Positions 3,845-62,279 of a stretch of DNA of 64,000 nt are shown in pieces (position 1 is the first letter of the stretch; every line of letters starts with the position of its first letter). Source of the stretch: an uncultured virus (IMG/VR IMGVR_UViG_2645728113_000006) (Duplodnaviria > Heunggongvirae > Uroviricota > Caudoviricetes). Below the pieces are notes generated by a model. That model searched no databases. It was not told where the DNA came from and worked only from the letters and a program-made list of their open reading frames with translations. The stretch lies in IMG/VR virus record IMGVR_UViG_2645728113_000006; one strand, written 5' to 3'. Position numbers and translations under genes: made by a program.

Positions 3845-3846
3845 AG

Positions 3847-9845: not shown

Positions 9846-9853
9846 TCTTCTTT

Positions 9854-9883: not shown

Positions 9884-9934
9884 CTCCAGTCAGGCGCCGC
9901 CCTCCGTGATATCGGATGCAGCGAGTAGGGTGGG

Positions 9935-10942: not shown

Positions 10943-11051
10943 TTCGTTTACCTCGGGTAAGCGCCGCCCTCCGTGTCCGGTGGTGGCAAATTGGTTTGGG
11001 TTGGGGTATTGATGGGCGGCCCGGCATGGAGCCGGATCAAGGAGCTAAAAA

Positions 11052-11372: not shown

Positions 11373-11682
11373 CTTCGTCACCTGGGTCGCGCCTAATCTC
11401 GGCCAAGCTTTGATTTCTGAATTCCAGCGCCACGTTTTCGTCAATCAGGATTTCGTGGCGCGGATAGCTCAAGAAGGCCGCGAGCTCTTCGTCGGTCATT
11501 AAGTCCATCTTCATGATGGCGATCTGCATGACCTCGCTGATGATCGGCACCTGGCCGCGCAGCCGAATACGTTCCATGGCCTGCTCGATGCCAGGCCTTA
11601 CTTTGTGCCGCAACTCCTTCTCGGCTACGGCCTGGCGTTTTTGCGCGGCTTTGGCCGATCTTTCCTGAACAGTCTTTGCCAT
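11332..11682 (-). CDS. Phage early hypothetical protein
   Basis: GAGG RBS; operon orientation. Confidence 0.7.
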   Translation of the reverse strand: MAKTVQERSAKAAQKRQAVAEKELRHKVRPGIEQAMERIRLRGQVPIISEVMQIAIMKMDLMTDEELAAFLSYPRHEILIDENVALEFRNQSLAEIRRDPGDEVIAPDQLQSGLHG

Positions 11683-11794
11683 GGCCTACCTCTTCTATTC
11701 CGCTGGCAGGCAGTGCGAGCCAGGTCAGCAGGTGACTCGGATGTTAATGTGGCGCTGGCAATGAGAGCAGCCTCAGCCAGCGCGCGACAGATCG

Positions 11795-12571: not shown

Positions 12572-12674
12572 GTTACTCATCCTTAAGTGGAGTGCGTGTT
12601 TGAGTGCGGGCCGAAATGGCCCGAAGCGAATGACCGCCGTCATATCGCCACTTTTCCTACAGAACCATAGTGCT

Positions 12675-13238
12675 TCACTTGATTCGTATGGTGCTGTCGC
12701 CGCGCTCCAGGTGAGCCCAGGCTGGTTCGGGTAAAAGATCGTGCTCCGCATCCTCACCGGCCGCCATACTCTTTCTTACGGCTGCGTTGTGATCTCGGAT
12801 TTCCTTGAGCTTGGTCGCGATAGCACGCTTGTCGGGAGAGAACACTGTTTTGGTGTCGATGAAGTCATCCGGGATATCGTCCTCTTTATCGACGATGACC
12901 TTTTCAGGTGCCAGAGCCAAAGTGATCGTGAACAAGGGGCGCCTGATCGTCTTGATATCGGCGGCCTCCATGTTATTGCGCAGGTACTCGTCGAGCTTGC
13001 CGACGGTATTCTTCCGGATGCGCTTGAGCTCGTTCAGCCGATCAACCTCTTTTTCGATTGCGTCGATATCTCCCTGGATGTTCAGACTCAACATGACAAC
13101 GCTTTCCGCTTTGTCGCTGAACTCACCTTGAATCTCTTCCATGGCGTGCTGCAAAGCTTCTTTCAGGCCTTCGTCATCGGTGTCGGCCATCGCTTGTAGT
13201 TCGGCGAGCTTGCCGGTGAGGGTGTAGAGCTGGGTCAT
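12675..13238 (-). CDS. Siphovirus Gp157 family protein
   Basis: MTQLYTLT start, coiled coil, IPDDF..., HLERG..IRIK end; follows the annealase. Confidence 0.85.
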   Translation of the reverse strand: MTQLYTLTGKLAELQAMADTDDEGLKEALQHAMEEIQGEFSDKAESVVMLSLNIQGDIDAIEKEVDRLNELKRIRKNTVGKLDEYLRNNMEAADIKTIRRPLFTITLALAPEKVIVDKEDDIPDDFIDTKTVFSPDKRAIATKLKEIRDHNAAVRKSMAAGEDAEHDLLPEPAWAHLERGDSTIRIK

Positions 13239-13960
13239 GCTGCAGCCTCCTTATCGGCGTCGGTGATTCGCTTCCATTCCAGCGAGACGCGCTCGGCACC
13301 CTTGGTGTCTTTGCGTAGGGTTAGTTTGCGCACCGCCACGTCATGGATCTTTTTCAGTTCCTGAGGAGACTGGGCACTGGCCATCGTGTCGATGACTGAT
13401 TTGATGTAGTCCAGGCGTTCCTGCTGTTGGCGAGCTTTCTCGGCTTCTTGATCTTCAGCTTGCTCGATCAGTTCTTCATCCTTCAGCTGGTTGACGTACT
13501 CGGCGTCGTCAAACATCCCAAGGAACACGTCGGCACTGAAGCCGAGCATTGATAGTGATTTCTTGATGGCATCGGTGAGCGACTTCTTTGGCGCCTCGCC
13601 ATCGGTAGTCGTGCCGAACTTCGACTTGTAGAGGTAGCGCGTGCAGCCGTACTGCTCTATCTCGCCGCGTTTGCCATCCAACTCAAACCAGAAGCGGATC
13701 TTGATGGTGTGGTTCAGTTCGCGACCCAATACCAGGCGCTTGTCTCCTTCACCGCTGACCATTTCAGCGCCTTCGTCGAAGCGCTCCTCAATAACTGACC
13801 AACCGAACCCGATCCCTACAGGGCCGAACACTTCGGTCGCCTTCATGATCATCGCGGTACCGTTCAGACTGGTGATCTTCTGACCGCCAACCTCGGCAGG
13901 TTTTGTATAGCGGGTATCGGTCGTGCAGACCTTTTCCCAAATCTGCATGTTCGTCGACAT
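13235..13960 (-). CDS. Single-strand annealing recombinase (Rad52/Sak-like)
   Basis: ATEVFGPVGIGFGW and KKSLTDAIKKSLSMLGFSADVF motifs. Confidence 0.7.
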   Translation of the reverse strand: MSTNMQIWEKVCTTDTRYTKPAEVGGQKITSLNGTAMIMKATEVFGPVGIGFGWSVIEERFDEGAEMVSGEGDKRLVLGRELNHTIKIRFWFELDGKRGEIEQYGCTRYLYKSKFGTTTDGEAPKKSLTDAIKKSLSMLGFSADVFLGMFDDAEYVNQLKDEELIEQAEDQEAEKARQQQERLDYIKSVIDTMASAQSPQELKKIHDVAVRKLTLRKDTKGAERVSLEWKRITDADKEAAA

Positions 13961-14037
13961 GAGAAGTCCTTGCCGCGATGATCGCAGCGTTCAAAGTGAC
14001 TGAGTGGATGGTGGAATTGAAGGGGGCGGGCGTAAGG

Positions 14038-14229
14038 TCAGCGCTGCTGCTGAACCCGATAGCGAAGTACCTGAAGCACTCGACCGCCGTAACCAGGTTC
14101 TGCGTACTGCTCAACTGGCGCACCGAAGAAGCCGCGGCGTTCGGCCAGGCTGTAGGCCTCGCGAAGGTTATGAGCGCTGATATCTTCGAGCTGCTCGTCG
14201 ATCAGTGATTTAACCGGTGCGGTAGTCAT
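14038..14229 (-). CDS. Phage hypothetical protein
   Basis: ATGA overlap with the upstream gene, AAGGAG RBS. Confidence 0.65.
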   Translation of the reverse strand: MTTAPVKSLIDEQLEDISAHNLREAYSLAERRGFFGAPVEQYAEPGYGGRVLQVLRYRVQQQR

Positions 14230-14417
14230 GCCTTCTCCTTACGCCGCCGGCTGACATCCAGGAGGCGTGCGCTATACCAATGAAATTCTTCTGCGTTGAT
14301 GGCGCCTGAGGTGAAGTGGCGCACGATCAAACCCTCAGCCAAGATCTCTTCGAGGGCGGGCTTATCTGGATCTTCAAGCGCAAACAGCGCTTTATCGATC
14401 TCAACGTAGGGGCTCAC
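14226..14417 (-). CDS. Phage hypothetical protein
   Basis: GTGA overlap coupling. Confidence 0.65.
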   Translation of the reverse strand: MSPYVEIDKALFALEDPDKPALEEILAEGLIVRHFTSGAINAEEFHWYSARLLDVSRRRKEKA

Positions 14418-14836
14418 AGTTCGTTGTCCTCGGCCTGGGCGATCAGAGCGTCATCAGCCAAAGGTTGAAGGAGGCGTTCGGCAATCTCGCCGAGCTTTCC
14501 CAGTGGATGGTCGCTCCGACCGAGTAGCTCCAGAGCTTCCGATTTCACCCTTGAGCCCGCCATCCCAGCGATCAGCAAGTAGCCCAGGGCTGGAGCGTCG
14601 ACGCCGCAGTCGGCAAGTAGGTTGTTGGCGTACTCATCGACAGCCAGTGCGAACTGGTAGGCCGTGACGCCTTGCTGTGGGTGCAGGTGGCGCTTGAACA
14701 CCACGCTGCCACCTCTGGCCAGCTCTTCGGCGGCGTTGTACAGCCATTCAGTGCGGGCCAATTGCTGAGAGGTTTCGCTCACCGGGGGCGGCAGTTGTTC
14801 GTCGTGCTCAAACTGAGCCTTGCGTAGTGCTGACAT
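14414..14836 (-). CDS. Phage hypothetical protein
   Basis: GGAGG RBS before ATG 14836. Confidence 0.7.
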   Translation of the reverse strand: MSALRKAQFEHDEQLPPPVSETSQQLARTEWLYNAAEELARGGSVVFKRHLHPQQGVTAYQFALAVDEYANNLLADCGVDAPALGYLLIAGMAGSRVKSEALELLGRSDHPLGKLGEIAERLLQPLADDALIAQAEDNEL

Positions 14837-15029
14837 GGTCGCCTCCAAAGTGGCGGGTTGTTCACCTATATTCGTAAACACTCATGCCTCCCGCTGGTTG
14901 CCGATGGGCGCGGGGAGGAGTGCTGACGGGTAGAGGCGCACAGGGGCATTAGCGTTTTGTCTTGGCAGCTAATATCATCCAAGCGCTGCATACATGGATG
15001 ATCATTACTTTCCCTATGGGGCTGCTTAA

Positions 15030-18937: not shown

Positions 18938-19975
18938 ATGTCAATGGAGCTGGGAGGTAATGGCGGGACTGAAACCTCAGAGAGCACAGTGTTTTTTAGT
19001 GATGAGGATACTGAGGTAAGCCTCCGCTTCGAATCTGATGACCAATCAATTTGGGCTACCAGTCAAAACATAGCTGACCTGTTTGGTGTGGACGTATCAA
19101 ATGCTCGAAAGCACATTCGAAATATCTACTCCGATGATGAGCTAGAGAAAACGGCAACTAAGGCAAAATTTGCCTCAGTTCAAATTGAAGGTGGTCGCGA
19201 AGTTATCCGCCCCGACGTAGCACACTACAGCCTCGATATGATCCTCTCGGTCGGCTATCGGGTGAATGCTAAGAGGGCCGTAAAGTTTCGGCAGTGGGCG
19301 ACTCAGACCCTCAAGGCATACATCGAACAAGGCTACGTAATCAACGAGAAGGCTCTCCGCGAGTCTCCCGAAAAGCTAAACAAGCTGGCCGCCGCGGTTC
19401 GAGCGCTTCGATCTGAAGAAAAACAGGTTTATGCGAAGGTCCGAGAATGTTTCAGGATTTGCGCTTCAGATTACGACCCTCTCTCGAAGGAGGTCAGAAG
19501 CTTCTATGCCCTGCTGCAGGACAAGTTTCATCACGCAGTCACTGGCATGACCAGCTCAAAGCTGATCCTCGATCGCGCAAACCATAAGTCTCAAAATATG
19601 GGCATGCAAGCCATAAAAGGTACATCGCCAACGCTGGAAGAAGCAAAGACCGGTAAAAACTACCTGAATAACGAAGAGCTTTATCGGCTTCATTTGCTCT
19701 CTGAGCAGTTCATGCTATACGCCGAAAGCACCGCTCTCACTAAGCGCCCAATGACTATGGCGTCGCTGCATGGAAAGCTAGATGCTCTACTCATATTCAA
19801 CGACTATCCCGTGTTCAGCGGGTACGAAGATTACATTAAGGAAGAGGCTGTGAGCCACGCTCGACAGGAGCTTGGGCTGTATAAAAAACGCCTAAAAATC
19901 GAGTCGCTTGGTTACGAGTATGACGAAGACGCTTTAGCGGCCGGCGAATACGACGAACTGCTGATTGACGCATAG
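18938..19975 (+). CDS. RhuM family DNA-binding protein
   Basis: YSLDMILSVGYRVNAKRAVKFRQWAT; QDKFHHAVTGMT; KNYL. Confidence 0.88.
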   Translation: MSMELGGNGGTETSESTVFFSDEDTEVSLRFESDDQSIWATSQNIADLFGVDVSNARKHIRNIYSDDELEKTATKAKFASVQIEGGREVIRPDVAHYSLDMILSVGYRVNAKRAVKFRQWATQTLKAYIEQGYVINEKALRESPEKLNKLAAAVRALRSEEKQVYAKVRECFRICASDYDPLSKEVRSFYALLQDKFHHAVTGMTSSKLILDRANHKSQNMGMQAIKGTSPTLEEAKTGKNYLNNEELYRLHLLSEQFMLYAESTALTKRPMTMASLHGKLDALLIFNDYPVFSGYEDYIKEEAVSHARQELGLYKKRLKIESLGYEYDEDALAAGEYDELLIDA

Positions 19976-23151: not shown

Positions 23152-24129
23152 ATGCAATACACCGTCACGATTAACCAGGTGAAGGCGCTGGAGTGGGGGC
23201 TGAATTCTCAGCAGGCCCTGCTGTTTGCCTTCGTCTACGGCTGCCCGAGCTGGACCAAGCCAATCAAGACCGATGACGGGGTCTTCTTCGCGCTGAGCAA
23301 GGCAAAGATCACTGAGGAGCTGCCGCTGCTCACAGACAAGCCAGACACCGCTTACCGCATGCTGAAGGCCCTGGAAGAGGCCGGTTTGATTGAGCTTTCC
23401 AGCACTTCGAACATCACGCTTTTTCGCCTTACCGAGAAGGCCATCGAGTGGAACCAGAAGCTTGATGGGTCGGAAAAATATCCGACCCCACCAAAAAACA
23501 AAGGTCGGAAAAATATCCGATCTACCTCGGATAAATCTCCGAGCAAGGTCGGAAAAAAATCCGAGCAAGGGTCGGATAAATCTCCGACAAATCAGGATAC
23601 CAATCATCAGGGTACCAATCAGGACACCAGTCAGGACTTGCAGGACGCCACCGGCAAGCCGGCTCAGTCCCGCGGCTTGGTGCTGGTGGTTGACCGCACC
23701 GATACTCCCCGTGTCGAGATTCCCGCCGATATGCCGGGCCCCAAAGACCAGACCTGCAAAACCTTCAAGGTTTGGGCGAACTACGCCATGGCTTACCGCA
23801 AACGCTACAGCGCCTGGCCGGTGTGGAACGCCAAGGTCGGCGGCCAGCTCGGACAGTTGGTCGACCGACTCGGCGCCGATGTCGCCCACCACGTCGCTGC
23901 CCACTTCCTGAAAACCAGCGATGCCGCTGTGCTGCGCAAGTGCCACAGCCTCAACGAGCTGCTGGCCAACGCCGAGAGCTACCACACCCAGTGGGTGACC
24001 GGGCAGCGCATCAACGGCACCACTGCCCGCCAGATGGAACGGACTGAGGCAAACCACTCCGCAGCGGAGCAGGCCGCCCAGATGGTTTTGGCCAAACGCC
24101 AAGCAGGTGACCGCAATGAATACCTTTGA
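23152..24129 (+). CDS. Phage replication initiator (O-like)
   Basis: Winged-helix N-terminus, internal iterons, synteny. Confidence 0.8.
   Translation: MQYTVTINQVKALEWGLNSQQALLFAFVYGCPSWTKPIKTDDGVFFALSKAKITEELPLLTDKPDTAYRMLKALEEAGLIELSSTSNITLFRLTEKAIEWNQKLDGSEKYPTPPKNKGRKNIRSTSDKSPSKVGKKSEQGSDKSPTNQDTNHQGTNQDTSQDLQDATGKPAQSRGLVLVVDRTDTPRVEIPADMPGPKDQTCKTFKVWANYAMAYRKRYSAWPVWNAKVGGQLGQLVDRLGADVAHHVAAHFLKTSDAAVLRKCHSLNELLANAESYHTQWVTGQRINGTTARQMERTEANHSAAEQAAQMVLAKRQAGDRNEYL
23470..23587. repeat. Five palindromic iterons TCGGA-N6-TCCGA (replication origin)
   Basis: Copies start at 23470, 23505, 23527, 23549, 23572. Confidence 0.85.
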
Positions 24130-47515: not shown

Positions 47516-47588
47516 GTTGTATGCCTGAACAGTATCGACTCGTCACGACAATCTACTTATCCTAGATTATTTGATACGAGATCAAATC

Positions 47589-48395
47589 ATGTTGCCCGAG
47601 CCAAGGCTGGCGCTAAACGAACTACTCAAGGAGCGAACCCTGCTCTGGCATAAGATTGCTGAAAATCATTATGTTGACGAGTTTGAGGTTCGGCGACTTT
47701 TTAATAAGCTTGATCGGCTGATAACAGATCCCGGTGCCGAGTTCAGTATTGCACCAGCCGCTTTGCATGAGCAGGCATATCTTTACGCTTACCAAATGAA
47801 AACCTCTAACGCCCTGCGGTTGTTTGAAGATGCTCGCCGTGCGGGACTTGATGGGCTTGCCGTATCAATTTCTACGGCCCATGCTTTATATATTTGTGGC
47901 GAGGTCGAAATGTCCAGGGAAGAGATATTGCGTACTGACTATTCTGATGCGAATAACAGGGGGCTGTCAGGGCTGGCTGATACCTGCGTTCATACTGGCT
48001 TGCTGAAAATGGCCAGGGATCTTTACATTCGGTCTGGAAAACAGGGTGGCGAAGTAAGCACTCAAGTTTTGCGTGCGGCCGAAATAATGGACCAGATTGG
48101 CGCGACGGATGAACAAGTAATGCGCAGGATCGCGACGGCTGCAAAAATTATCAAGTCTATGTCTGCGCATCCGTTCATTGCATTTGACCTGTTCGCTATG
48201 CAGGGCGAGGGAATCCTCTACCGCTTCGTAGTGAATGGGAGTACTGAAAGGCTGGTCGAGATTGATATGGCAATTGATGAGGCATTAATCGCTGATTTCG
48301 ATGAGGAAATTGATGACGTATTGTCGATTGGGATTGCGCCTTATGAGTTCGGTTCGAATATGTTAGCTGCGGATGGTTATTATGTCGGTGTGTAG
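47589..48395 (+). CDS. Helical-repeat (TPR-like) accessory protein
   Basis: Long ORF overlapping the HEPN-like gene; atypical codon usage. Confidence 0.7.
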   Translation: MLPEPRLALNELLKERTLLWHKIAENHYVDEFEVRRLFNKLDRLITDPGAEFSIAPAALHEQAYLYAYQMKTSNALRLFEDARRAGLDGLAVSISTAHALYICGEVEMSREEILRTDYSDANNRGLSGLADTCVHTGLLKMARDLYIRSGKQGGEVSTQVLRAAEIMDQIGATDEQVMRRIATAAKIIKSMSAHPFIAFDLFAMQGEGILYRFVVNGSTERLVEIDMAIDEALIADFDEEIDDVLSIGIAPYEFGSNMLAADGYYVGV

Positions 48396-48759
48396 TGATG
48401 ATCTGTTGTTGTTAGCCGAGTCACTTATTGGAAGTAAGGATGAGGTTGGCAATCGTGCGAGCATAAGCAGAAGTTATTATGCACTGTACCATGAGGCTAC
48501 AATAGCCGCATCGGCGCTCTCTTTAAAAAGCAATCCAGATGTAAAAACAAGTCACGATAAATTAATTTCGCGCTTTACCGGTGCGACTAAAGGTCTTGCC
48601 TCAATTGGGCGCGGCATTCTCAAGCAAAAGCGATTGCGTGCAATGGCTGACTATGAGATCGGCTCAGATCTCAATGCGTCCGAGGCGAGGTTCCATTTGG
48701 CTACAAGCAAGCGGCTTGTAAGTGACTTGCGAAGGATCGCTGATCCTGCGAACTCTTAA
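48382..48759 (+). CDS. HEPN-like domain protein
   Basis: RASISRSYYALYH...SH..LI...R.MADY. Confidence 0.75.
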   Translation: MSVCSDDLLLLAESLIGSKDEVGNRASISRSYYALYHEATIAASALSLKSNPDVKTSHDKLISRFTGATKGLASIGRGILKQKRLRAMADYEIGSDLNASEARFHLATSKRLVSDLRRIADPANS

Positions 48760-49018
48760 GATCTTTGCTGGATCAGGTCTTGAACAGAGTTTTCCTGTTA
48801 TCCGCCACCCTGCTACAGTCCCGCCAAACCAAAGAGGGAACGACATGCGGATTTTTGCTGTGATGTGCGAGGACCATTGATGTGATGCTGTGTTAGAGCG
48901 CAAGAGACTTTGGCAGTTTTATATGGAAGAGCGAGAAATCGCGAGTAGCTCCTATTGATTGCTGGCGCTGATCATGGCCGAATGATAGCTTTCAACCGTA
49001 TTAATTTTTTTCCACGGA

Positions 49019-49894
49019 GTGGATGTGCCAGCCCTTATTCCCCAATTGGTCAATGCTGCACTCGATCCTCATACATCGGTTGCCAGCTTGCTAAGGCATG
49101 CGCTAGTAGCGGCAAATAGGCTTAGTCTCGTTGACCTGGCCGATTGGATGAGTTCGGAACTCAATGGCTACAAAACCGCTTCACTGCCGGAGTATAGAAA
49201 GCTCCGTGGCACTCTCATTTGTGAGCACGAATTTGGGGGGTGGATGCCTTTAGAGGTCACGCATGCGGCAACCCTTAATATGGTGTCTCAGCGACCGTTC
49301 TATCAGTCCATCCCGGAATTAGAGCGATTAACTAGCAGCGGCGGGCCTTTCGTCGTTTTTTTTCCTCCAAAGAATGAAGTTTACTTACGCTCATTAATGA
49401 GGCCACCGACTAGGCCGGCAGTGGAAATACAGGCGAGCCAGATATTTGGCCTAATAGAGCTAGTTCGTAGCAGAATATTACAGTGGGCACTAGACCTTGA
49501 GTCCAAAGGGGTTATGGGTGAAGGTATGTCGTTTACATTGCAGGAGCGTCAGATCGTGGCTGCACAGCACTACCATTTTGGCGATGTTACTGGATCTCAA
49601 ATTCAAATTGGCTCGAGTGGGTCGAATCAGTCCATCGCACCCGGTGACAGCACGGGAGCAATGAATGCGTTAATCAACCTGCTTCGTGATGTTCTAGCTC
49701 GGAACGAGATTGATGGCGATGTGGCTGCCGAGTTGGTTGCCGAGCTCAAGACTCTGGAAGCTCAAGCCGAATCACCACGGCCTAAGGCATCAATTATCAG
49801 AGAAACCGCGCTGAGTATTCAGAGGGTCTTAGAGGGGGTTGCCGGTAACGTATTAGCGACCGCCGCTCCATTGATTTATTCGCTGGTGAGTTGA
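49019..49894 (+). CDS. AbiTii-like domain protein
   Basis: LLRHALVAA.RL....W...ELNGY...LPEYRKLRG. Confidence 0.8.
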   Translation: MDVPALIPQLVNAALDPHTSVASLLRHALVAANRLSLVDLADWMSSELNGYKTASLPEYRKLRGTLICEHEFGGWMPLEVTHAATLNMVSQRPFYQSIPELERLTSSGGPFVVFFPPKNEVYLRSLMRPPTRPAVEIQASQIFGLIELVRSRILQWALDLESKGVMGEGMSFTLQERQIVAAQHYHFGDVTGSQIQIGSSGSNQSIAPGDSTGAMNALINLLRDVLARNEIDGDVAAELVAELKTLEAQAESPRPKASIIRETALSIQRVLEGVAGNVLATAAPLIYSLVS

Positions 49895-49926
49895 TGCCAG
49901 CCCAGTCCCGCGCTGGGCTTTTTGCT

Positions 49927-50475
49927 TTAAACATTCCGAGGAGTTCGCCGATCCTTGAGTACGGAATCTAGGTCTCGTGCTAATTGGTCGGCGAGAATTC
50001 CGAGGATTGTCCATATGGCCATTGAGCGGGTGCGGATGACAATCGCATGCGTCTCCTCATCCTCTCCTTCGGGCTCATAAGGCGTGAAATTCTTCTGATA
50101 CACGGCGAACCCGATCGGCTCGCTGATTTTGAAGAATTTTGCTAGCAGAGGCTGCAAGCGCACTGGTTCGTTTCGATGTCCTACCGCGTTGCGAAGGTTA
50201 TTTAGCGCCTTAATCGAATCCCATAGTTCAGGCTCCATAGCTGAACCCACGATTGCCCTGCAGAGCTCCGTAGCAGTGCCGAAAGTAAAAATATCGTTTC
50301 GGCTATAAGGGCGAGAGTATTGGGCTACCCCAGCGGCTATCAGATCATGCAATTGCTCCTCGACAATCATGTGGCCGCGTAGCACTGCCGACAGCAGTTC
50401 ACTGTCCCGTTCGAAGGTGCGATGAAACTGCGCGGTCTTCTTCTCGATGTCCTTTGCGAAAAGTTCTCTTTTCAT
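49927..50475 (-). CDS. HEPN/MtlR-like helical protein
   Basis: VLRGHMIVE and LNNLRNAVGH (Rx4H). Confidence 0.65.
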   Translation of the reverse strand: MKRELFAKDIEKKTAQFHRTFERDSELLSAVLRGHMIVEEQLHDLIAAGVAQYSRPYSRNDIFTFGTATELCRAIVGSAMEPELWDSIKALNNLRNAVGHRNEPVRLQPLLAKFFKISEPIGFAVYQKNFTPYEPEGEDEETHAIVIRTRSMAIWTILGILADQLARDLDSVLKDRRTPRNV

Positions 50476-50568: not shown

Positions 50569-51024
50569 TCATTGCGGCATCGGTGGCCAGCTTTTGGACT
50601 CTTCGACTACGTTGGCGATTACTTCTTCGATGGTTGTCTTTTCGCCGCGAGCCTCGGCATGAAAAAGATCAATTATTGCGTTGAGCATTATTTCCTGTGT
50701 GACGCCATGCTTCGCTGCTTCGCCTTGTAGATTTTCGATGGTGCTTTTCGGTAACGCTAGGACTAGGTCTTTCTTGCCCTCAGCGACTAGCGCCATTTCT
50801 AAAACCTCGGGCTGGTCATCAACATCCTGCAGTTTTTCCACTTCACAACCGAGTGCTTTAGAGAGCTTGACTAATGCGGTCATGCGAGGAACCGAGGTGC
50901 CCATCTCATACCGTCCTATTTGAGGAACGCTTAAGCCACTCGCCTTCGCAAGATCGCGCTGTGTCATTCCCGCGTCTGCGCGGAGGCGGACGAGCCGGGA
51001 AGGGAAGCCTTTCGGGTGGTACAT
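50569..51024 (-). CDS. XRE-family HTH regulator
   Basis: LVRLRADAGMTQRDLAKASGLSVPQIGRYE; alternative start at 51054. Confidence 0.88.
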   Translation of the reverse strand: MYHPKGFPSRLVRLRADAGMTQRDLAKASGLSVPQIGRYEMGTSVPRMTALVKLSKALGCEVEKLQDVDDQPEVLEMALVAEGKKDLVLALPKSTIENLQGEAAKHGVTQEIMLNAIIDLFHAEARGEKTTIEEVIANVVEESKSWPPMPQ

Positions 51025-51158: not shown

Positions 51159-51326
51159 ATGAGGTCGGAAAAATCGCGATACCCGCTCAGCTTGGAGGCA
51201 TCTGTGAAAGTGCAGGCAGAAGGTGAAGCAAAGAAAAATCGACGCAGTTTGAATGCCGAACTCGGACTGTTAATCGAGGAGGGACTGAAATGGAGGGAGC
51301 AAACGAGCAAGCAGGCAGTAGCCTAA
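51159..51326 (+). CDS. Arc-family ribbon-helix-helix repressor, 55 aa (not in ORF track)
   Basis: AAGGAGG RBS; ...EAKKNRRSLNAELGLLIEEGL. Confidence 0.82.
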   Translation: MRSEKSRYPLSLEASVKVQAEGEAKKNRRSLNAELGLLIEEGLKWREQTSKQAVA

Positions 51327-51394: not shown

Positions 51395-52258
51395 ATGAGC
51401 GATATTAGCACAACCGTTTCGAATGTCATCCCGTTCAATTTCGGCAAGCAGCAGGTGCGTACGCTGCTGATTGATGATCAGCCGTGGTTCGTGGCTAACG
51501 ATGTTTCTGCTGCGCTTCAGTACAGCGAAGCGTCGGCGATGACTCGGCATTTGGACGACGATGAAAAGGGTCTGTCGATTGTGCAGACCCTTGGCGGCGA
51601 TCAGGAAATGCTGGTCATCAACGAGTCAGGCCTTTACTCGGCAATCCTGCGCAGCCGTAAGGCTGAAGCCAAACGCTTTAAGAAGTGGGTCACCGCTGAA
51701 GTCCTCCCGGCGATTCGCAAGCAGGGCAGCTACCAAGATTCCAGCAATAAAATGAAGGCGCTGATGGATGATCTGGTCGACATGACCGAGACGAATGCAC
51801 TGAAGGGCTTGGCGCGCCACAAGGTGGCACATCTTCCAGCCTCCATTCAGCGCAGTGCTTCCGCTCGTATTTATTCGGCAGTGCACACACGTTTCAACGT
51901 GCCGCGTCTTGAGCTTATCCCTGCAAGCCAGTTCGAGTCGGCGTGCAACTTCATCGCGGCCTACGCCGTTCTTGAGGGAGAGTTCATTCCGAAGGGGAAC
52001 GGCAAGCCATTCGACATCCCGGAGAAGCTTGGCCAGTGTGAGCGCTATCTCGTCAGCGCAGATCCTCACGGCAATCGGCAGGTCACGCCGGTGCCAATGG
52101 GGGCGTTCGTCCTGACTCGGCAGCAGTTCATGCAGTCAATGCTTGTTGATCGAGATATGCCAGTTTCCACAGCGGAGATGTTCGAGTTTGTAGCGCTGGC
52201 GACCGAAAACCTGCGCTACCGCTTTCTGTTCCAGGCTGCCCGGAGGGACGCAGCATGA
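51395..52258 (+). CDS. BRO-N antirepressor
   Basis: PWFVANDV; INESGLYSAILRSRKAEAKRFKKWVT.EVLP.IRK. Confidence 0.9.
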   Translation: MSDISTTVSNVIPFNFGKQQVRTLLIDDQPWFVANDVSAALQYSEASAMTRHLDDDEKGLSIVQTLGGDQEMLVINESGLYSAILRSRKAEAKRFKKWVTAEVLPAIRKQGSYQDSSNKMKALMDDLVDMTETNALKGLARHKVAHLPASIQRSASARIYSAVHTRFNVPRLELIPASQFESACNFIAAYAVLEGEFIPKGNGKPFDIPEKLGQCERYLVSADPHGNRQVTPVPMGAFVLTRQQFMQSMLVDRDMPVSTAEMFEFVALATENLRYRFLFQAARRDAA

Positions 52259-52830
52259 GCATGGAACTTGTCACACTAAAAATTACCGGCACGTCACCGC
52301 TGATGATGCACAGCGACAAGCTGGCCAACCCTTTGAATCCAGCAACAAAGGCTCACAAGGAATTGACCGGTAAGCGCAAGAAGACGGACGACGATCATCT
52401 TGCCATTGCTCGCTCTGAGTTTATCGCTGGTGCCTACCACGATGAAAAGCTTGGCTTTTTTGTGCCAGGTGCGAATTTCGATGCGACGTTCTTGGCTGGC
52501 GCGAAGCTCCAAAAGCTGGGCACTCAATGGAAGCGCGGAGCGGTTGTGATGACTGACAAGGCGAAGCTTGAGTTCTCTGGCCCGACAACGCCTGACTCTC
52601 TTTGGGAGGATCAGCGGTTCGTTGACTGCCGCGGAGTAAAAGTTGGTCAAGCCAAGATCATGCGATACCGCCCGATCTTTCTTGAGTGGGCCGTGGAGCT
52701 GGAAGTTGCAATCAACGCTGACGTACTCAACATCGAGGAAGCAAAAAAAGCGATCACTGATTCTGGCCTGTTGATTGGGGTCTGTGAATACAGACCGCGC
52801 TTCGGTCGCTTCGAGGTGGAATATGTCTGA
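52255..52830 (+). CDS. Stand-alone RAMP/Cas7-like protein (candidate guide-RNA effector)
   Basis: N-terminal strand ITGTSPLMMH, VPGANF, RYRP.F.EW, C-terminal Gly loop GLLIGVCEYRPRFGRFEV; fold inferred by eye. Confidence 0.7.
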   Translation: MSMELVTLKITGTSPLMMHSDKLANPLNPATKAHKELTGKRKKTDDDHLAIARSEFIAGAYHDEKLGFFVPGANFDATFLAGAKLQKLGTQWKRGAVVMTDKAKLEFSGPTTPDSLWEDQRFVDCRGVKVGQAKIMRYRPIFLEWAVELEVAINADVLNIEEAKKAITDSGLLIGVCEYRPRFGRFEVEYV

Positions 52831-53281
52831 GTTGACAAAGCACCCGAGCTATAAGCAAGCCGTTGAAGACTTCCTCAAGGAGTTCAAATACGGTGATTTG
52901 GTCGGACATGAATGGCTGGAGGCTCGTTTCGGCATGCCGTCAATGACCGATTCGAAGTCGCTGACTGTTGAGAAGTTTCGTGAGCGTCAGTTCGAGTGGC
53001 TGGCGAACGTCGAGGCATTCAAGTCGGACTTGCTCAAACATCATCAAGTCTGCCTTCAGTCAGTGCGCGGGCGTGGTTATCGATGGGTGCCGCCTCATGA
53101 GCAGACAGAAGTTGCGGTAACTGAGTTGGGCCGGAATGTCAGGAAGGCGTTTCGCGGGAGTGGAGAAAAGCTGAGAAATTTGAGGATTACGGAGCTTACC
53201 GATGATCAGCGACGGGCAAACCTTGACGCTGTTGCAAAGTTTTCCGCGCTCCAGGGCATGACTCGAAAGGCTCTTGGTTAA
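52823..53281 (+). CDS. Winged-helix-like accessory protein coupled to the RAMP-like gene
   Basis: 8 bp overlap; LQSVRGRGYRW wing-like motif; stop lies 3 bp before the array. Confidence 0.7.
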   Translation: MSELTKHPSYKQAVEDFLKEFKYGDLVGHEWLEARFGMPSMTDSKSLTVEKFRERQFEWLANVEAFKSDLLKHHQVCLQSVRGRGYRWVPPHEQTEVAVTELGRNVRKAFRGSGEKLRNLRITELTDDQRRANLDAVAKFSALQGMTRKALG

Positions 53282-53284
53282 TAG

Positions 53285-53556
53285 CAGCGTAATATCCTTT
53301 CTATGAGAGGGCATTGCGGTGCGAATGCATCATGTGGCGTGGCGAGACAAGGTTGGGCGAGGTCTGGTTAGGTCGGGCATGTCTAGGTGAGGGCTGACAA
53401 CAGCGTAATGCCGATTGGAATCAGTCGGCATTGCGGTGGCAGAAGCCGCTGGCAGGTTCTGGTCCGGCAAGTCGCGGCTAGGCCCGGCGGGGTGTGATTT
53501 GATTTGGTATGGGCTGATAACAGCGTAATGTCTCTTCTTGGAGGAGGCATTGCAGT
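53285..53556 (+). ncRNA. Candidate guide-RNA array: three structured repeats separated by two GGY-NN pentamer tracts
   Basis: CAGCGTAAT-hairpin-GCATTGC at 53285, 53401, 53521; 5 nt periodic tracts at 53336-53390 and 53451-53510. Confidence 0.8.
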
Positions 53557-53578: not shown

Positions 53579-53599
53579 GGCCCGCATTGCGGGCTTTCG
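53579..53599 (+). terminator. Terminator closing the array
   Basis: GGCCCGC-ATT-GCGGGCT followed by a short T run. Confidence 0.6.
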
Positions 53600-53652: not shown

Positions 53653-54054
53653 ATGAAACTGTTCGTAGGATTTTTTTTTATTTTGAGCTTGGTCGGCTGC
53701 TCTAGTTCGCCCATATCTGCCGACAAGGCCGATCCGGTGCCAAGCTCTCGGCTTTATGCCTTCGCTGCAAAGTCCGATTCTCAACTCATTGTTACCCGAG
53801 ATGGCGGGATGTTTGGATCTGGATGCAATTACCGTTTCTATATCAATGGGGAGCTTGCTGCCGAATTCTCCTCGGGGGAGGTGGCCAGGTTTGGTGTTAA
53901 GGCCGGCCGAGTAGTGCTTGGCGCGAAGCCAAGCGCAGCTTGCGGGGGAGGGATGATGGTTGAGCGCGATGTCGAAATAAAAAGCGGAGAAGTTTTGAGA
54001 AGAAGAATATCCATGTCGCCCGGCGGTCCAGATATATCAGCTACCGCTTATTGA
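53653..54054 (+). CDS. Lipoprotein moron
   Basis: Signal peptide with LVGC lipobox; own RBS and terminator. Confidence 0.8.
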   Translation: MKLFVGFFFILSLVGCSSSPISADKADPVPSSRLYAFAAKSDSQLIVTRDGGMFGSGCNYRFYINGELAAEFSSGEVARFGVKAGRVVLGAKPSAACGGGMMVERDVEIKSGEVLRRRISMSPGGPDISATAY

Positions 54055-54101: not shown

Positions 54102-54701
54102 ATGTCAGCACTCGCAATTAATTATCAGCCGATGACTACCATCTTGCTTTATGGGCAGCTTAGGCAATTTGGAAGATCTTTCAGGTTGTCAGTTAAGTCC
54201 CCAGCCGAGGCTATCAAGGCGCTATGCGTACAGATCCCTGGCTTCGAGCGGTTCCTGTCGAACGCCAAGTCTCGCGGCATTGAGTTTGCCGTGTTTCGAG
54301 GGTCAAAAAATCTTGCAGAAAAAGAATTAGGATTTGGCGGTTCCGGAGAAATCCGTATAGCGCCTGTAATTACGGGCCGAAAGCGCGCAGGCCTGATGCA
54401 GACCATTTTGGGCGCCATATTGATTGTGGTAGGTTTTTTTGCTTTCGGGTCGACAACAACTACAGGCGCAGCGCTCATAGCGGGCGGTATCGGTAGTGCT
54501 GCTGGGGGCGTAATCCAAATGCTTAGTCCGCAGGCGGCAGGCCTCAAGATGAGCGCTGCGCCCGAAAACCAGCCTGGATATGCATTTGGCTCGGCGCAGA
54601 ACACAACTGCATCCGGCAACCCGGTCCCGCTCTGCTACGGCAAGCGCAGGGTCGGCGGGGCGATTATTAGCGCCGCGATATACGCCGAAGACCAGATGTA
54701 G
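54102..54701 (+). CDS. Tail assembly protein I
   Basis: SPAEAIKAL; YAFG..NT..GNPVPLCYG..GGAIISA. Confidence 0.9.
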   Translation: MSALAINYQPMTTILLYGQLRQFGRSFRLSVKSPAEAIKALCVQIPGFERFLSNAKSRGIEFAVFRGSKNLAEKELGFGGSGEIRIAPVITGRKRAGLMQTILGAILIVVGFFAFGSTTTTGAALIAGGIGSAAGGVIQMLSPQAAGLKMSAAPENQPGYAFGSAQNTTASGNPVPLCYGKRRVGGAIISAAIYAEDQM

Positions 54702-54760
54702 ACATCACTTTAAGCGTCGCAGCCGCCCACGAGGCGGTTTTTTATTGCCTGGAGAAAAGC

Positions 54761-57700
54761 ATGGGCGCAGCACAAAAGATCGATATACACGGCGCCAAAG
54801 GCGGCGAAGGTAAACCAAAAACGCCGACTGAGGCCCCGGACAGTCTGCGCTCTGTTGCTATCGCAAAAATGCTCATTGCCGTGGGCGAGGGTGAGTTCGA
54901 GGGCACGCCAACTGCCAAAGACATCTATCTCGACAACACGCCCCTGCAAGACCCTCAAGGCAACATAAATTTCCCGAACGTGAAGTGGGAGTGGCGCACC
55001 GGTGCCGTGGACCAGAGCTATATCCAGGGCATCCCTTCGGTCGAGAACGAGACCACGATCAGTACCGAGCTGCGCAGCGGGACACCGTGGGTACGGGCCA
55101 TCAGCAATACCCAGCTTTCCGCTGTTCGCGTCCGTTTTGCGTGGCCTGTGCTTCAGTCCGTGGACTCTGGTGGCAACGTCAATGGCTACCGGATTGAATA
55201 CAAGGTTGAGCTGGCCACCGATGGCGGCGCCTATCAGCAGGTGCTGAGCGAGGCTGTCGACGGCAAGACCACCAGCCTGTACGAGCGCACGCGCCGTATC
55301 AATTTGCCGAAGGCCACTTCTGGTTGGCTGATGCGGATCACTCGCCTGACCGCGAATCAGAACAACAACAAAATCTCCGACACGATGCAAATTGCCGGCT
55401 TCACCGAGGTGATCGACGCGAAGATCCGCTACCCGAATACTGCGCTGCTTTACATCGAGTTCTCGGCCGAGCAGTTCCGCAGCATTCCTGCCGTTACCGT
55501 CGAGACCAAACTGAAGAAGATGCAGGTGCCGAGCAACTACGACCCAGTGTCGCGCACCTACTCGGGCGTCTGGGATGGCACGTTTAAGCAGGCTTGGACC
55601 GACAACGCGGTCTGGATGACCTACGACATCAGTACCGCCGACCGCTTCGGCCTGGGTCGCCGCATCAAGCCGTGGATGGTTGATATTTGGGAGTTGTATC
55701 GTATTTCCCAATACTGCGACCAGTTGGTGCCGGACGGGAAGGGGGGCCTGGAACCGCGCTTCATCTGCAACTTGAACCTGCAGAGCAAAGCCGATGCCTG
55801 GTCACTGCTGCGTGACATATCGGCGATCTACCGAGGCATGACCTACTGGGCCCAGGGCCAGGTCTTCACCCTGTCGGATATGCCGCGTGCCACTGACTTC
55901 GACTTCGCCTATACCAGGGCCAACGTCCTTGACGGTAAGTTCACCTACTCCAGCGCGTCGGAGCGTACCCGGTACACCCGGGCGCTGATCAGCTACGACA
56001 ACCCGCTGAACAACTACGACACCGATGTCACTGCTGTGACCGATGCAAAGCTCCAGCGGCGCTATGGTGACAATCCGCTGGAGATCAGCGCAATTGGTTG
56101 TACCCGCGAGTCCGAGGCCCAGCGCCGCGGCAAGTGGGCGCTGCTGACCAACTCCAAGGATCGGGCGGTTACCTTCAAGGTCGGCCTCGACGGTCGCATC
56201 CCGCTTCCTGGTTACGTGATCCCCATTGCTGACGAACTGCTTGCAGGTCGGCCGGTGGGTGGCCGTATCTCGGCGGTGAACGGAAAGGTCATCACCCTGG
56301 ACCGTGACACCCAGGCCAAGCCCGGCGACCGGTTGATCCTCAACTTGCCAGACGGCAAGTGCGAGGGGCGCACGGTGCAACTGGTCAGTGGCCGACAGGT
56401 CACCGTAACCCTGGCCTACTCCGTACCACCGGAGCGTGAACTAGTGTGGGCGCTGGACGCCGACGATCTGGCGATCCCGCTTTACCGGGTGGTCAGCGTG
56501 GCGCGGCCAGAGCCCGGCGTATTTGAAATCTCAGCCGTGCAGTACGACCCCAGCAAGTTCGATCACATCGACACCGGCGCCCGGTTGGAAGAGCGGCCTA
56601 TCAGCGTTGTACCGATCACCGTAGTTCCTGCCCCGACGAGCGTCGACATCACGTCGAACTACTCCGTGGACCAGGGCCTGGCAATCAGCACCATGAATAT
56701 CTCGTGGCCTGCTGTGGCTGGCGCAGTGGCTTATGACGTGGAGTGGCGCAAGGACAGCGGAAACTGGATCAAGCTGCAGCGCACCGGCTCTACCAGCGTT
56801 GACGTCACCGGCATTTACTCGGGCGCATATCTCGCCCGTGTTCGGTCGGTGAGCGCGTTCGAGATTTCGTCCATTTGGAAGAGCTCCAATCTGACCAACC
56901 TGGAAGGGAAGGTCGGCCTCCCGCCGGCCGTGGCGTTCCTGTCCACCACTAGCGAGCTGTTCGGCATTGGCATTCGCTGGGGTTTCCCGGCTGACGCCGA
57001 GGATACCCAGCGCACCGAGCTCTGGTATGGACAGGCTAATGATCTGTCGGTGGCGACCAAACTCGCAGACTTGGCGCACCCCCAAGCGAATTACAGCATG
57101 CAGGCCCTAAAGGCCGGCGCGCAGTTCTTCTTCTGGGCTCGCCTGGTCGACCGTACCGGTAACGTTGGCCCGTTCTATCCCGTCGGTAACGGCGTGATGG
57201 GGATGGCAAGTGCCGATGCGGCGCCGGTGCTGGATTTGATCGCCGGGCAGATTGGGCGTACGGAGCTGGGCAAGGACATCACGGACGAGATCGACAAGAT
57301 CCCAGGGCTGCAGGCGCAGATCGACGCGCTCGATGGGTTGTCCGCCTACGACCCGGAGTCGACCTACCTTGAGTTTGACCTAGTGGTGGTTGGTAAGCGG
57401 ATCTACCAGGCCACCGGCCCGGTACCCGTCGATACGCCACCACCGAATGCCAACTACTGGCAGGACGTGGGTCAGGCGGTGGTCACTGCCAATGGCCTTG
57501 CGCGTCAAGTTGAGATCAATACCACCAGCATCACCGAACTGGACGGGGTGGTCACGGCTCAGGCGTCAAGTCTTCAGGCGTTGCAATCGGCTTATCGGGA
57601 CGACACGGGGGAGGGGGATCTGGTTGATGCACTCCAGGGCTACAACGCCTCGGCGAGTTTCGCGCAGGAAGTGAAGACGCAGGCCACGAAGAACGCAGCC

Positions 57701-58324
57701 ATGGTGCAGCGGCAGACCGAACTTACTGCAGAGGTGGGCGACGTCGCCGGCACCGTAACTGATCTGGAAAGAGTTGTGGTCACTGATCGGGAGGCGACTG
57801 CCCAGGCCATCCAGCAGGTCGGCGTGAAGATCGGCGAAAACACGGCTGATATCCAGACCGTGAGCAAGGCCCAAGCAGACACAGACGGCAAGCTCTCAAC
57901 GATGTGGTCCGTGAAGATGCAGCTCAATGCGAATGGCCAGTACGTCGCGGCAGGCATCGGGCTTGGTATCGAGAACGTAGATGGTCAGTTGCAGAGCCAG
58001 TTCCTGGTGAGCGCCGACAGGTTCGCCGTGGTGAACAACATCAATGGCGTGCTTTCTACACCATTCACCGTGCAGAACGGCCAGGTGTTCATGCGATCTG
58101 CCTTCATCGAGGACGGCAGCATCTCGATGCTGAAGATCGGTGAGGCTCTGCAGTCCAACAACTACGTCGCTGGCGTTCAGGGGTGGCGTTTGGATAAGGC
58201 CGGGAACCTTGAGTTCAACGGTCCGGCACCTGGTGGTGGACGCCTGACGATGACCAATCGTGCGATCAAGGTGTACGACGAAAACAACGTCAAGCGGGTG
58301 CAGCTAGGGGATCTGACAGCATGA
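54761..58324 (+). CDS. Tail tip / host specificity protein J
   Basis: GAKGG start, YPNTAL, YCDQLVPDG, FN3 region, ADRFAV C-terminus. Confidence 0.93.
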   Translation: MGAAQKIDIHGAKGGEGKPKTPTEAPDSLRSVAIAKMLIAVGEGEFEGTPTAKDIYLDNTPLQDPQGNINFPNVKWEWRTGAVDQSYIQGIPSVENETTISTELRSGTPWVRAISNTQLSAVRVRFAWPVLQSVDSGGNVNGYRIEYKVELATDGGAYQQVLSEAVDGKTTSLYERTRRINLPKATSGWLMRITRLTANQNNNKISDTMQIAGFTEVIDAKIRYPNTALLYIEFSAEQFRSIPAVTVETKLKKMQVPSNYDPVSRTYSGVWDGTFKQAWTDNAVWMTYDISTADRFGLGRRIKPWMVDIWELYRISQYCDQLVPDGKGGLEPRFICNLNLQSKADAWSLLRDISAIYRGMTYWAQGQVFTLSDMPRATDFDFAYTRANVLDGKFTYSSASERTRYTRALISYDNPLNNYDTDVTAVTDAKLQRRYGDNPLEISAIGCTRESEAQRRGKWALLTNSKDRAVTFKVGLDGRIPLPGYVIPIADELLAGRPVGGRISAVNGKVITLDRDTQAKPGDRLILNLPDGKCEGRTVQLVSGRQVTVTLAYSVPPERELVWALDADDLAIPLYRVVSVARPEPGVFEISAVQYDPSKFDHIDTGARLEERPISVVPITVVPAPTSVDITSNYSVDQGLAISTMNISWPAVAGAVAYDVEWRKDSGNWIKLQRTGSTSVDVTGIYSGAYLARVRSVSAFEISSIWKSSNLTNLEGKVGLPPAVAFLSTTSELFGIGIRWGFPADAEDTQRTELWYGQANDLSVATKLADLAHPQANYSMQALKAGAQFFFWARLVDRTGNVGPFYPVGNGVMGMASADAAPVLDLIAGQIGRTELGKDITDEIDKIPGLQAQIDALDGLSAYDPESTYLEFDLVVVGKRIYQATGPVPVDTPPPNANYWQDVGQAVVTANGLARQVEINTTSITELDGVVTAQASSLQALQSAYRDDTGEGDLVDALQGYNASASFAQEVKTQATKNAAMVQRQTELTAEVGDVAGTVTDLERVVVTDREATAQAIQQVGVKIGENTADIQTVSKAQADTDGKLSTMWSVKMQLNANGQYVAAGIGLGIENVDGQLQSQFLVSADRFAVVNNINGVLSTPFTVQNGQVFMRSAFIEDGSISMLKIGEALQSNNYVAGVQGWRLDKAGNLEFNGPAPGGGRLTMTNRAIKVYDENNVKRVQLGDLTA

Positions 58325-61341: not shown

Positions 61342-61767
61342 ATGCCGACCGCAGAAACTCGAGGGGTGCGTAATCGCAACCCCGGCAACATCGACTACAA
61401 CCCGGCCAACCAATGGCAAGGCCAGCTCAAGCCAGACCCCGCCATCGAGAAGCGCTTCGCCCGCTTCGACACTGCCGAGAATGGTATCCGAGCGCTGGGT
61501 AAGCTGCTGCTGACCTACCAGCGTAAGCATGGGCTTAAGACGGTGAAGGCCATTATCAGCCGCTGGGCACCATCGGTAGAGAACGACACCGCCGCCTATG
61601 TGCGCGCCGTCGAGACCAATACCGGCACCCGGCTGGGAGCTGAGATTGATCTGGCCAAGCCTGCAGTGATGTCTGGATTTGTGAAGGCGATCATCCATCA
61701 CGAAAACGCGGGGTATGCCTACCCTGACGCTGTGCTGGCGGAAGGCGTGCGGCGGGCACTGGCATGA
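61342..61767 (+). CDS. Putative endolysin (lysozyme-like)
   Basis: RGVRNRNPGNI; IISRWAP..ENDT.AY; directly upstream of the spanins. Confidence 0.75.
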   Translation: MPTAETRGVRNRNPGNIDYNPANQWQGQLKPDPAIEKRFARFDTAENGIRALGKLLLTYQRKHGLKTVKAIISRWAPSVENDTAAYVRAVETNTGTRLGAEIDLAKPAVMSGFVKAIIHHENAGYAYPDAVLAEGVRRALA

Positions 61768-62279
61768 CGCCCGGGCAGATCCTGGCCGCGATCCTGCTGT
61801 CCATGGCCGTCAGCGCCGGCGGCACCTGGCAGGTGCAGGACTGGCGCACGGGCAAGAAGCTCGCCGAGCAGGCGGGCCAGTTCCAGGCCGACATGGGGCT
61901 GGTCAGCGCTGCCGCCGCCAAGCAAGCACGCGATGCCACCGATAAGCGCCTGACCCTTGAGCAGCAGCTCGCCGGTCAGGACCAACAACACACCCGAGAA
62001 CTGTCCGATGCCCAACGCAACCAGGCTCTACTGCGCGATCGTCTTGCCACTGCTGATCTGCGGCTGTCAGTCCTTCTCGACGCCACGGATTCAGCCGGTG
62101 GCTGCGACGTGCCTGCCGCCCCCGGCGCCGTCGGCGTGGTTCATGCAGCCCGTCGAGCCCAACTTGACCCGGCGCATGCTCAACGAATTATCGCCATCAC
62201 CGATGAGGGCGATAACGGATTGATCGCTCTACGCGCCTGTCAGGGATATGTCACAGAAATACTTAAGAGAAAATATTAA
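61764..62279 (+). CDS. Rz: i-spanin (Rz)
   Basis: N-terminal TM, coiled coil, LRACQGY. Confidence 0.85.
   Translation: MTPGQILAAILLSMAVSAGGTWQVQDWRTGKKLAEQAGQFQADMGLVSAAAAKQARDATDKRLTLEQQLAGQDQQHTRELSDAQRNQALLRDRLATADLRLSVLLDATDSAGGCDVPAAPGAVGVVHAARRAQLDPAHAQRIIAITDEGDNGLIALRACQGYVTEILKRKY
62008..62223 (+). CDS. Rz1: o-spanin lipoprotein (Rz1), embedded in Rz
   Basis: LICGC lipobox; Pro-rich CLPPPAPSAWFM in the +1 frame. Confidence 0.8.
   Translation: MPNATRLYCAIVLPLLICGCQSFSTPRIQPVAATCLPPPAPSAWFMQPVEPNLTRRMLNELSPSPMRAITD

Follow-up and report, generated by a model that had tools for sequence, protein, structure and literature searches.

VIPR systems silence genes through guide RNAs (vrRNAs) whose NN dinucleotides pair with the target DNA and skip a single base of it, usually the wobble base, from one dinucleotide to the next; according to the discovery preprint, as far as its text was consulted, they need no protospacer-adjacent motif (PAM), and bound genes are silenced from either strand (bioRxiv 10.64898/2026.04.26.720920). 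The same text reports that none of 96 guides of the Pseudomonas fulva clade matches its own genome at 80% or more of its NN positions, 80% being the cut-off used in that paper, and a later preprint argues in the part consulted that the coding target of a satellite, a recombinase gene, cannot mutate away without breaking the gene (10.64898/2026.10.15.759431). Without a PAM, self and rival are separable only by the target sequence. Here we describe the IMG/VR record IMGVR_UViG_2645728113_000006, a stretch of 64,000 nucleotides from an uncultured Caudoviricetes virus (the whole stretch is called the window below), in which gene calls, Pfam and PHROG place a type II VIPR cassette between the tail genes K and I of a lambdoid prophage, with guides directed at tail genes I and J. 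Judged from sequence, the cassette probably arms the phage against its wider family, and mismatches in its own targets (an escape patch in J and a mismatching allele of I) would avert self-silencing and be kept together with the guide by selection.

Own target sites in genes I and J

The VIPR units were taken as the NN dinucleotides read at codon positions 1 and 2, codon position 3 being skipped. It is a skip of one base that reveals the site in J, with the skipped base at codon position 3; skips of 0, 2 or 3 bases gave no outstanding match in the window, except for the array itself at a skip of 3. The guides, the two genes and their sites are as follows.

54102..54701, + strand: tail assembly gene I (Pfam Lambda_tail_I, PHROG 32)
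54761..58324, + strand: tail tip gene J (Pfam FNIII-A_GpJ, Phage-tail_3, Phage_Tail_Tip)
53336..53390, + strand: vrRNA1 repeat tract, 11 GGY-NN units (three degenerate), spelling the J motif VDKWELYRI in sense
53451..53510, + strand: vrRNA2 repeat tract, 12 units (four degenerate), spelling the I motif NTPGYAFGS in antisense
55679..55705, + strand: own vrRNA1 target core, J codons 307-315, 7/9 units and 16/18 bases matching
55706..55711, + strand: codons opposite the two tail-proximal vrRNA1 units, mismatched both in the window and in each of the 83 relatives described below
54567..54593, - strand: own vrRNA2 target core in I, 7/9 units and 14/18 bases matching

In the J core the guide reads AA and CT where the window has ATT at 55685 (Lys309 to Ile) and TTG at 55694 (Leu CTN to TTG), and in the I core it reads AC and AG where the window has CAG at 54570 (Thr to Gln) and TCG at 54591 (Ser AGY to TCG), the own motifs being VDIWELYRI (with TTG) and NQPGYAFGS (with TCG). 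An earlier, sequence-only reading of this DNA had singled out these four codons, and both the sequence and the guide reading confirm that each site combines one synonymous mismatch across codon families with one that changes the amino acid; that only Leu, Ser and Arg permit synonymous change at positions 1 and 2 follows from the standard code. Its count of two mismatched dinucleotides per site holds for the nine-unit cores but not for the J span 55679-55711 that it gave, which comprises 11 units, four of them mismatched (TA/TC and GA/CA in addition), with 18/22 bases matching. The I guide has three further units beyond its core, mismatched in self, for a total of 15/24 bases. Self matches therefore stand at 63% for vrRNA2 (15/24) and, for vrRNA1, at 82% by bases (18/22) or 64% by units (7/11), a scoring which may differ from that of the discovery paper.

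The J site is the best one-skip match in the 7.2-Mb assembly to which the window belongs, and none of 1000 unit-shuffled guides reached 16/18 in positions 15001-64000, the prophage part of the window. By itself the I match is within chance (243/1000 shuffles as good), and I is taken as the vrRNA2 target because relatives hold perfect core matches: exact matches to the I core were found in at least 120 viral stretches, and in 79 of 80 listed loci the match falls in gene I, in frame. No perfect target for all 11 vrRNA1 units was found in IMG/VR, and no second J-type gene, hence no co-resident rival, was found with this query in the 66 contigs of the own assembly.

Target alleles in relatives without VIPR

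Relatives were sampled by J similarity outside the site, combining the 60 best matches from 400 genomes of the genus with 80 loci kept of 568 (140 in all); J matches were present in 127/401 genomes of the genus set, and the own genome and two unpublished ones were excluded from the sample. Once duplicates had been dropped, 85 loci reached the threshold of 80% identity over 380 or more of J codons 1-420; 83 of them have no vipr or vrRNA in the fetched locus and two have them. Gene K is visible in 74 of the 83, which means that the full K-I interval is covered there. All of these are related phages, and the counts are not independent trials.

Perfect cores, and thus targets in competing mobile elements, are present in 75 of 83 VIPR-less relatives for J and in 76 of 81 for I; the remaining eight and five, respectively, match 8/9 units, and none is as low as 7/9. 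Ile309 occurs in 0/83 and a TTR leucine codon in 6/83, and in I Gln and TCN occur in two relatives each, never together. Both VIPR carriers in the sample of 85 have Ile309 and TTG. Across 119 scored top J homologs residue 309 is Lys in 114 and Ile in five, the query's own included. No AT-rich donor with Ile309 was found among the top 120 homologs beyond the five Ile proteins, nor among the listed 30 best-scoring phage records, the top one of which reaches 97% over 36 aa and has Lys at the site; the scan pattern was strict, and more distant donors could escape it. The F2 pyocin tail protein (PDB 25VF chain A) has the motif VDKWSLYRI, with Lys at the same place.

Association between guide and allele

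Scans of three collections with an exact Ile309 pattern returned six viral, one genome and two metagenome contigs, amounting to eight distinct records, one of which is identical to the window in the compared proteins. Seven of the eight have a cassette with the same J guide, and the eighth is a fragment of 4,953 bp that begins inside J. Conversely, the J guide pattern identified six viral contigs, five with Ile309 and TTG and one (L011) with a distant J (46%) that mismatches naturally (14/18), and the I guide pattern identified four, with own I sites at 14 or 12 of 18. A perfect own target is absent from all six contigs with the J guide and all four with the I guide; some carriers fall lower than the window, with 15/18 at the J site in the L004 group and L043 and 12/18 at the I site in L004. 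VIPR phages of the same tail family with other guides have Lys or Arg at 309, which shows that the J allele tracks the guide and not VIPR as such. Thus L005, whose Vipr is 98% identical and whose guide differs, has a J site identical to that of VIPR-less phages, and the isolated phage Medea1, with VIPR and another guide, has a perfect J target.

The corresponding scan of I for Ser TCN gave 14 stretches, four of them in VIPR loci (two without the I guide) and ten without VIPR, and of these ten three also have Gln, one His and six Thr. The three VIPR-less carriers of the double allele are the complete proviruses L208 and L216, neither with vipr or tail motif, and the partial L218; L208 keeps both cassette flanks and looks like a VIPR-loss derivative. 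The possibility that the same alleles are equally common without the locus can therefore be set aside for J, where the guide stands beside Ile309 in 7/7 informative records; for I the case is weaker, since the double allele is missing from the sample of 81, yet present in three VIPR-less proviruses and two VIPR phages without the I guide.

The J guide itself is not restricted to one cassette. The same guide is present beside Viprs only 82-84% identical (as vrRNA2 in L011 and L358, as vrRNA3 in L043), which indicates that guides move between cassettes. Its L011 version has TT at unit 6, matching the TTG allele, and its L043 version has TT at unit 7, which lowers the match to self and to most rivals; unit 10 varies (TA, GA, GG, GC) and never equals the phage's own TC.

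History of the J patch

The 83 relatives share 186 invariant columns across J codons 1-420, the footprint's nine residues all being among them, and the window departs from these columns at two, T291S and K309I. K309I is the sole deviation of this kind that the window has in common with every one of the five further carriers examined, three of which add I315V, also in the footprint. The footprint ranks first of 412 segments for total rarity and for wobble rarity and ninth for read positions, and in both the window's J and that of L003 the 11-codon footprint is the segment, out of 789, that lies farthest from any VIPR-less relative. In trees of the two flanks (91 rows, J codons 180-300 and 322-440, six carriers) the carriers need four and five changes, respectively, and a single clade is rejected (p-AU, from the approximately unbiased test, 3.5e-5 and 0.0026). 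A patch of about 30 bp is thus present in at least four different J backgrounds: L003 equals the window over codons 307-315 and is 85-90% identical on both sides, and L043 is 73% identical to the window over codons 297-306 and 89% over codons 307-315, having its own clade's Gln at 306 followed by the shared patch, including a GTT codon found in 1/83 relatives. From guide to patch the carriers diverge by up to 36% across gene I and early J, and simple linkage therefore does not explain the pairing. The shared rare wobble states point to one origin with later spread or retention by recombination, not to repeated invention.

As the sequence-only reading had noted, the J site is also a run of T-ending codons (6/9, against 0.16 over J; unique among 1179 segments; binomial P 0.0008), and the 83 VIPR-less relatives have zero to three at the site. 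Since this run lies at skipped positions it is not predicted by escape, and most simply the T-ending codons would be passengers on an old patch that the common allele cannot overwrite; mutation in an open R-loop is a possible source. Strand-specific deamination was considered as a cause but is not supported: with a sense guide, J has C to T changes on the displaced strand, whereas the antisense guide of I also goes with changes of C to T and C to A on the sense strand, leaving no strand signature. Selection on the skipped bases is unexpected under the code as far as it is set out in the published text consulted, and A/T pairs should ease unwinding.

In I the site is unremarkable within a divergent gene (rank 49 of 190 segments; about 70-82% identity to most relatives). 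Two rare changes flank its footprint, at 54549 (Thr to Met, 0/81 relatives) and 54597 (Lys to Gln, 1/81), and could be relics of earlier guides; none of the extracted guides matches them.

Other guides of the clade

From the loci we extracted 85 distinct guide strings, 13 of which have near-perfect targets in at least three VIPR-less loci, in a pool that was not deduplicated and that includes loci chosen for a perfect I site. An own homolog of the target is visible for eight of the 13 (five being versions of the J guide), and all eight lie two to six bases below a perfect core. Independent examples are L005 and L044: in L005 the own site at the end of I scores 13/18, with 2/62 similar relatives as low, and in L044 the own site in gene L scores 13/16, with 1/21 relatives as low. 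The other five, with tail-region targets, have no homologous own stretch that we could find in the locus. At positions that had not been used in choosing sites, the match to pool sites across the 13 guides was 0.11 for the last unit and 0.48 for the second last.

In L001-L080 the unit just before the vrRNA tail is usually AT, AA or TT and seldom agrees with the target, which suggests that in this clade it is structural. Phage Medea1 (L369, MW862109.1, positions 8511-8575) has its cassette at the same position, and its single detected guide spells the relatives' tape-measure motif, with a best match of 21/22 and an own best site of 18. In the genome that carries the window, vrRNA2 also matches 20/24 bases (8/12 units) at G000:C34:100239-100273 (+), a host terminator-like hairpin, just downstream of a gene whose end resembles what we take to be malate synthase G; no shuffled guide out of 40 scored as high as 20 across the genome, and the match is possibly an off-target or a chance one.

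Evaluation of alternative explanations

Several observations weigh against target-side escape maintained by selection. With all 22 bases of the J guide counted, the window scores 18 and rivals score 20, 19 and 18 in 57, 21 and 5 of 83, a margin of one or two bases; the own score exceeds the 80% cut-off of the discovery paper, as given in its text, and equals that of five rivals, so that escape may be partial. (For the 24 bases of the I guide the own score is 15, and rivals score 19, 18 and 17 in 75, 2 and 4 cases.) TTG alone is commonplace, being found in 6/83 relatives at the site and in 12% of conserved Leu codons, and the occurrence of the I double allele outside loci with the I guide speaks the same way. 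Carriers of Ile309 are few and related and probably share one patch origin, and the more distant pairs of carriers are not unusually alike at the site (31-66% of segments showing as high an identity). Lastly, T291S, private to the window, alters an invariant column that no footprint covers, and a nine-codon segment containing it ranks slightly above the site on read positions alone. Base 55632, which encodes this change, differs from the window in all four sequencing runs compared, which makes T291S look recent and private; among the run contigs, two short ones cover most or all of the J site with one difference each, at 55632, and one spans the array to J with 121 differences from the window.

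The alternative that survives best, which we nevertheless regard as unlikely, places selection on the guide: the sites already differed, and guides were kept because they spared self, with no target change selected. This fits I well, given the divergence of the gene, the ordinary rank of its site, and the presence of Gln or TCN singly in two of 81 relatives each and together in guide-less phages; the J guide of L011 beside a naturally mismatching distant J, and a unit 10 that varies and never matches the own TC, also agree with it. For J it would need Ile309 standing in phages free of the guide, which none of the 83 relatives and none of the informative scan records provide, Lys being the residue in nearly all homologs.

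Quite improbable, in our estimate, is that the alleles were selected in phages under VIPR attack and were acquired by the VIPR phage later, through recombination. Single mismatches do occur in 8/83 (J) and 5/81 (I) relatives, and the I double allele of L208, L216 and L218 would be expected from such victims; L208, however, has the appearance of a VIPR-loss derivative, Ile309 was seen in no victim, and with Vipr in 5/401 genomes (a tally that includes one unpublished genome) the pressure on victims is probably low.

We give still less credence to partial self-binding retained so as to put a brake on genes for tail and lysis, for instance to hold lysogeny or limit leaky late expression, with mismatches that tune the silencing. 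An own J score of 18/22, at the best site in the assembly and level with five rivals, is what such a brake might leave, but carriers add further mismatches (15/18 in J in the L004 group and L043, 12/18 in I in L004) and keep no fixed level, and wherever a homolog is visible the own copies lie below nearly all similar relatives. Ordinary divergence with linkage, that is, a clonal haplotype of cassette plus J with neutral changes, is the least probable and for J largely refuted: few carriers and a rate of 0.64 private invariant-column changes per sequence in the relatives would suit it, but the patch persists across up to 36% divergence of I and J, the flank trees reject one clade and the footprint ranks first in total rarity.

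On balance, self/non-self discrimination by target mutation, as the sequence-only reading proposed, is well supported for J, where Ile309 is tied to the guide in several backgrounds, and is weaker for I, where the whole gene is divergent and three VIPR-less proviruses have the double allele. That the target change was selected after the array had been acquired is plausible for J from the alleles compared.

Proposed mechanism and implications

Under target-side escape, filaments of Vipr with the two vrRNAs would bind I and J at their conserved stretches and stop the late operon from being transcribed, a mechanism that the published text consulted shows for the VIPR of phage SUSP1. The block would hit superinfecting or co-induced relatives, including their downstream endolysin and spanin genes. 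In J, an escape patch of about 30 bp would combine one free change (Leu CTN to TTG) with a substitution, Lys309 to Ile, of a residue that is otherwise invariant; it most likely arose once and was retained or re-imported with the guide as recombination exchanged the rest of the gene. Guide and patch, which are observed together, would be held together by selection against self-silencing, the own mismatches presumably cutting self-binding enough for tail expression and Ile309 being costly and lost when the guide is absent. The mismatching allele of I would give the same protection and may predate the guide.

A further and tentative possibility, to which we would give somewhat less than even chances, is that guide and escape patch form a two-locus poison-antidote pair within one phage family, in which the T excess at skipped positions could be a mutational footprint of repeated Vipr binding. 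If so, the cassette would silence the tail and lysis operon in about 90% of relatives, a recombinant that took up the cassette but not the 30-bp patch, 2.3 kb distant, would silence itself, and the pair would spread jointly as the DNA between them turns over, making the patch a heritable 'self' mark in an essential structural gene. For the way in which a PAM-less VIPR separates self from rival, this locus offers natural alleles that mark a likely escape threshold of two mismatched units per nine-unit core. The route of escape appears cheap, requiring Leu or Ser codon-family switches plus one substitution, and would qualify the view, as expressed in the published text consulted, that the wobble-skipping code leaves coding targets without exit. 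In vrRNAs of this type the last unit, or the last two, next to the tail are apparently free of selection for matching, which bears on target prediction and on guide design.

Organisation of the cassette and neighbouring genes

Positions 52255-53555, termed a RAMP-array locus in the sequence-only reading, are by homology and repeat structure a type II VIPR consisting of Vipr, a Vap1-like gene and two vrRNAs. The cassette runs from an HTH (helix-turn-helix) gene through an Arc-like gene, a Bro-N gene, vipr, the vap1-like gene and two repeat units to a lipoprotein gene.

50569..51024, - strand: Cro/C1-type HTH regulator, divergent head of the cassette (Pfam HTH_3, E 4e-14)
51159..51326, + strand: Arc-like repressor (PHROG 228, E 3e-4)
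51395..52258, + strand: Bro-N antirepressor-like gene (Pfam Bro-N, E 2e-25)
52255..52830, + strand: vipr, RAMP-family effector of 191 codons (PDB 36PP, SUSP1 Vipr, E 1.3e-46 over 188 aa)
52823..53281, + strand: vap1-like accessory gene of 152 codons (tblastn 22%, E 6e-4 to a SUSP1 gene)
53391..53436, + strand: vrRNA1 conserved tail and hairpin (fold z -5.3; tail start common to related VIPR loci)
53511..53555, + strand: vrRNA2 conserved tail and hairpin (fold z -4.7)
53579..53595, + strand: terminator-like hairpin 3' of the array (consensus scan alone; 5 found versus 4.1 in shuffles)
53653..54054, + strand: lipoprotein gene, end of the cassette (PHROG 890, E 5e-34)
61342..62279, + strand: endolysin and Rz-like spanin genes (PHROG 873, 2466), downstream of I and J on the same strand

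Vipr, which likely starts at the second Met (52261), appears from its sequence to be a stand-alone RAMP homolog with thumb and G-loop contacts, its H17, K33, R137, E176, Y177 and R178 lying at or adjoining the contact numbers given in the published text consulted (H17, K33, R138, D177, W178, R179). The vap1-like gene overlaps vipr and thus has the position of vap1, directly after vipr, with weak similarity to a comparison gene that is not named vap1 in the SUSP1 record and that is preceded by a gene of 195 codons, presumed to be vipr. With 11 and 12 GGY/NN units and a structured 3' tail each, the vrRNAs fall within the range of 9-16 units, 7/23 units being degenerate at the second base. A promoter scan found no sigma-70 promoter for the cassette on the + strand and two on the - strand, against 2.2 expected. 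The endolysin and spanin genes would share a polar block from binding at I or J.

A protein homolog search found homologous J proteins from Pseudomonas. Between K and the cassette, positions 47571-50475 contain accessory genes, among which three have no Pfam match and one, at 49019-49894, has an AbiTii domain (Pfam E 2e-36), and a RhuM-family gene lies within the prophage at 18938-19975 (Pfam E 4e-65). A 22-bp tandem repeat of 3.9 copies at 23501-23587, in a probable replication gene, likely represents origin iterons. Positions 1-14892 of the window fall outside the contig of the own assembly that carries the rest.

Comparison with known systems

In lysogens with a self-targeting CRISPR-Cas system, escape mutations in the protospacer relieve the targeting; CRISPR also has a PAM and repeat-based recognition of self, and its contiguous pairing can be broken by wobble changes. 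The present case differs in that VIPR lacks a PAM and skips the wobble base, and in that guide and target lie on one phage.

As far as the texts consulted describe them, the type II VIPR of Escherichia phage SUSP1 and that of a Pseudomonas fulva prophage (10.64898/2026.04.26.720920; 10.64898/2026.04.26.720927) resemble this locus in having a Vipr homolog, a vap1-like gene and GGY/NN vrRNAs with a structured tail, and also in the one-base wobble skip, in targets on either strand and in targeting rival Pseudomonas prophages. They differ in that the published targets of the P. fulva clade, defined by over 90% identity to the P. fulva Vipr, are mainly lysis-lysogeny regulators of another prophage, whereas the guides here address tail genes that are essential and belong to the family of the carrier itself, and in that all self matches of that clade lie below 80%, whereas one own site here reaches 82% by base count. 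In the SUSP1 family, vrRNAs that target solo vrRNAs match self less well than rivals, which the text consulted reads as avoidance of autoimmunity (10.64898/2026.10.15.759431); the same trend is seen here, although there it concerns non-coding vrRNA loci and here a coding target. Against the argument made for the satellite in that preprint, the coding target here appears to escape through one Leu switch and one substitution at an invariant residue. The three VIPR preprints contain, in the text consulted, no data on mismatch tolerance and no recoded coding self-target, and a literature search found no account of target-side recoding of an essential gene; both statements extend to texts without supplements, and these guides or tail-gene targets may be listed in data S3 and fig. 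S15. With that scope, the locus represents a known system with an apparently undescribed feature, target-side escape in an essential gene, which is well supported for J and plausible but unproven for I.

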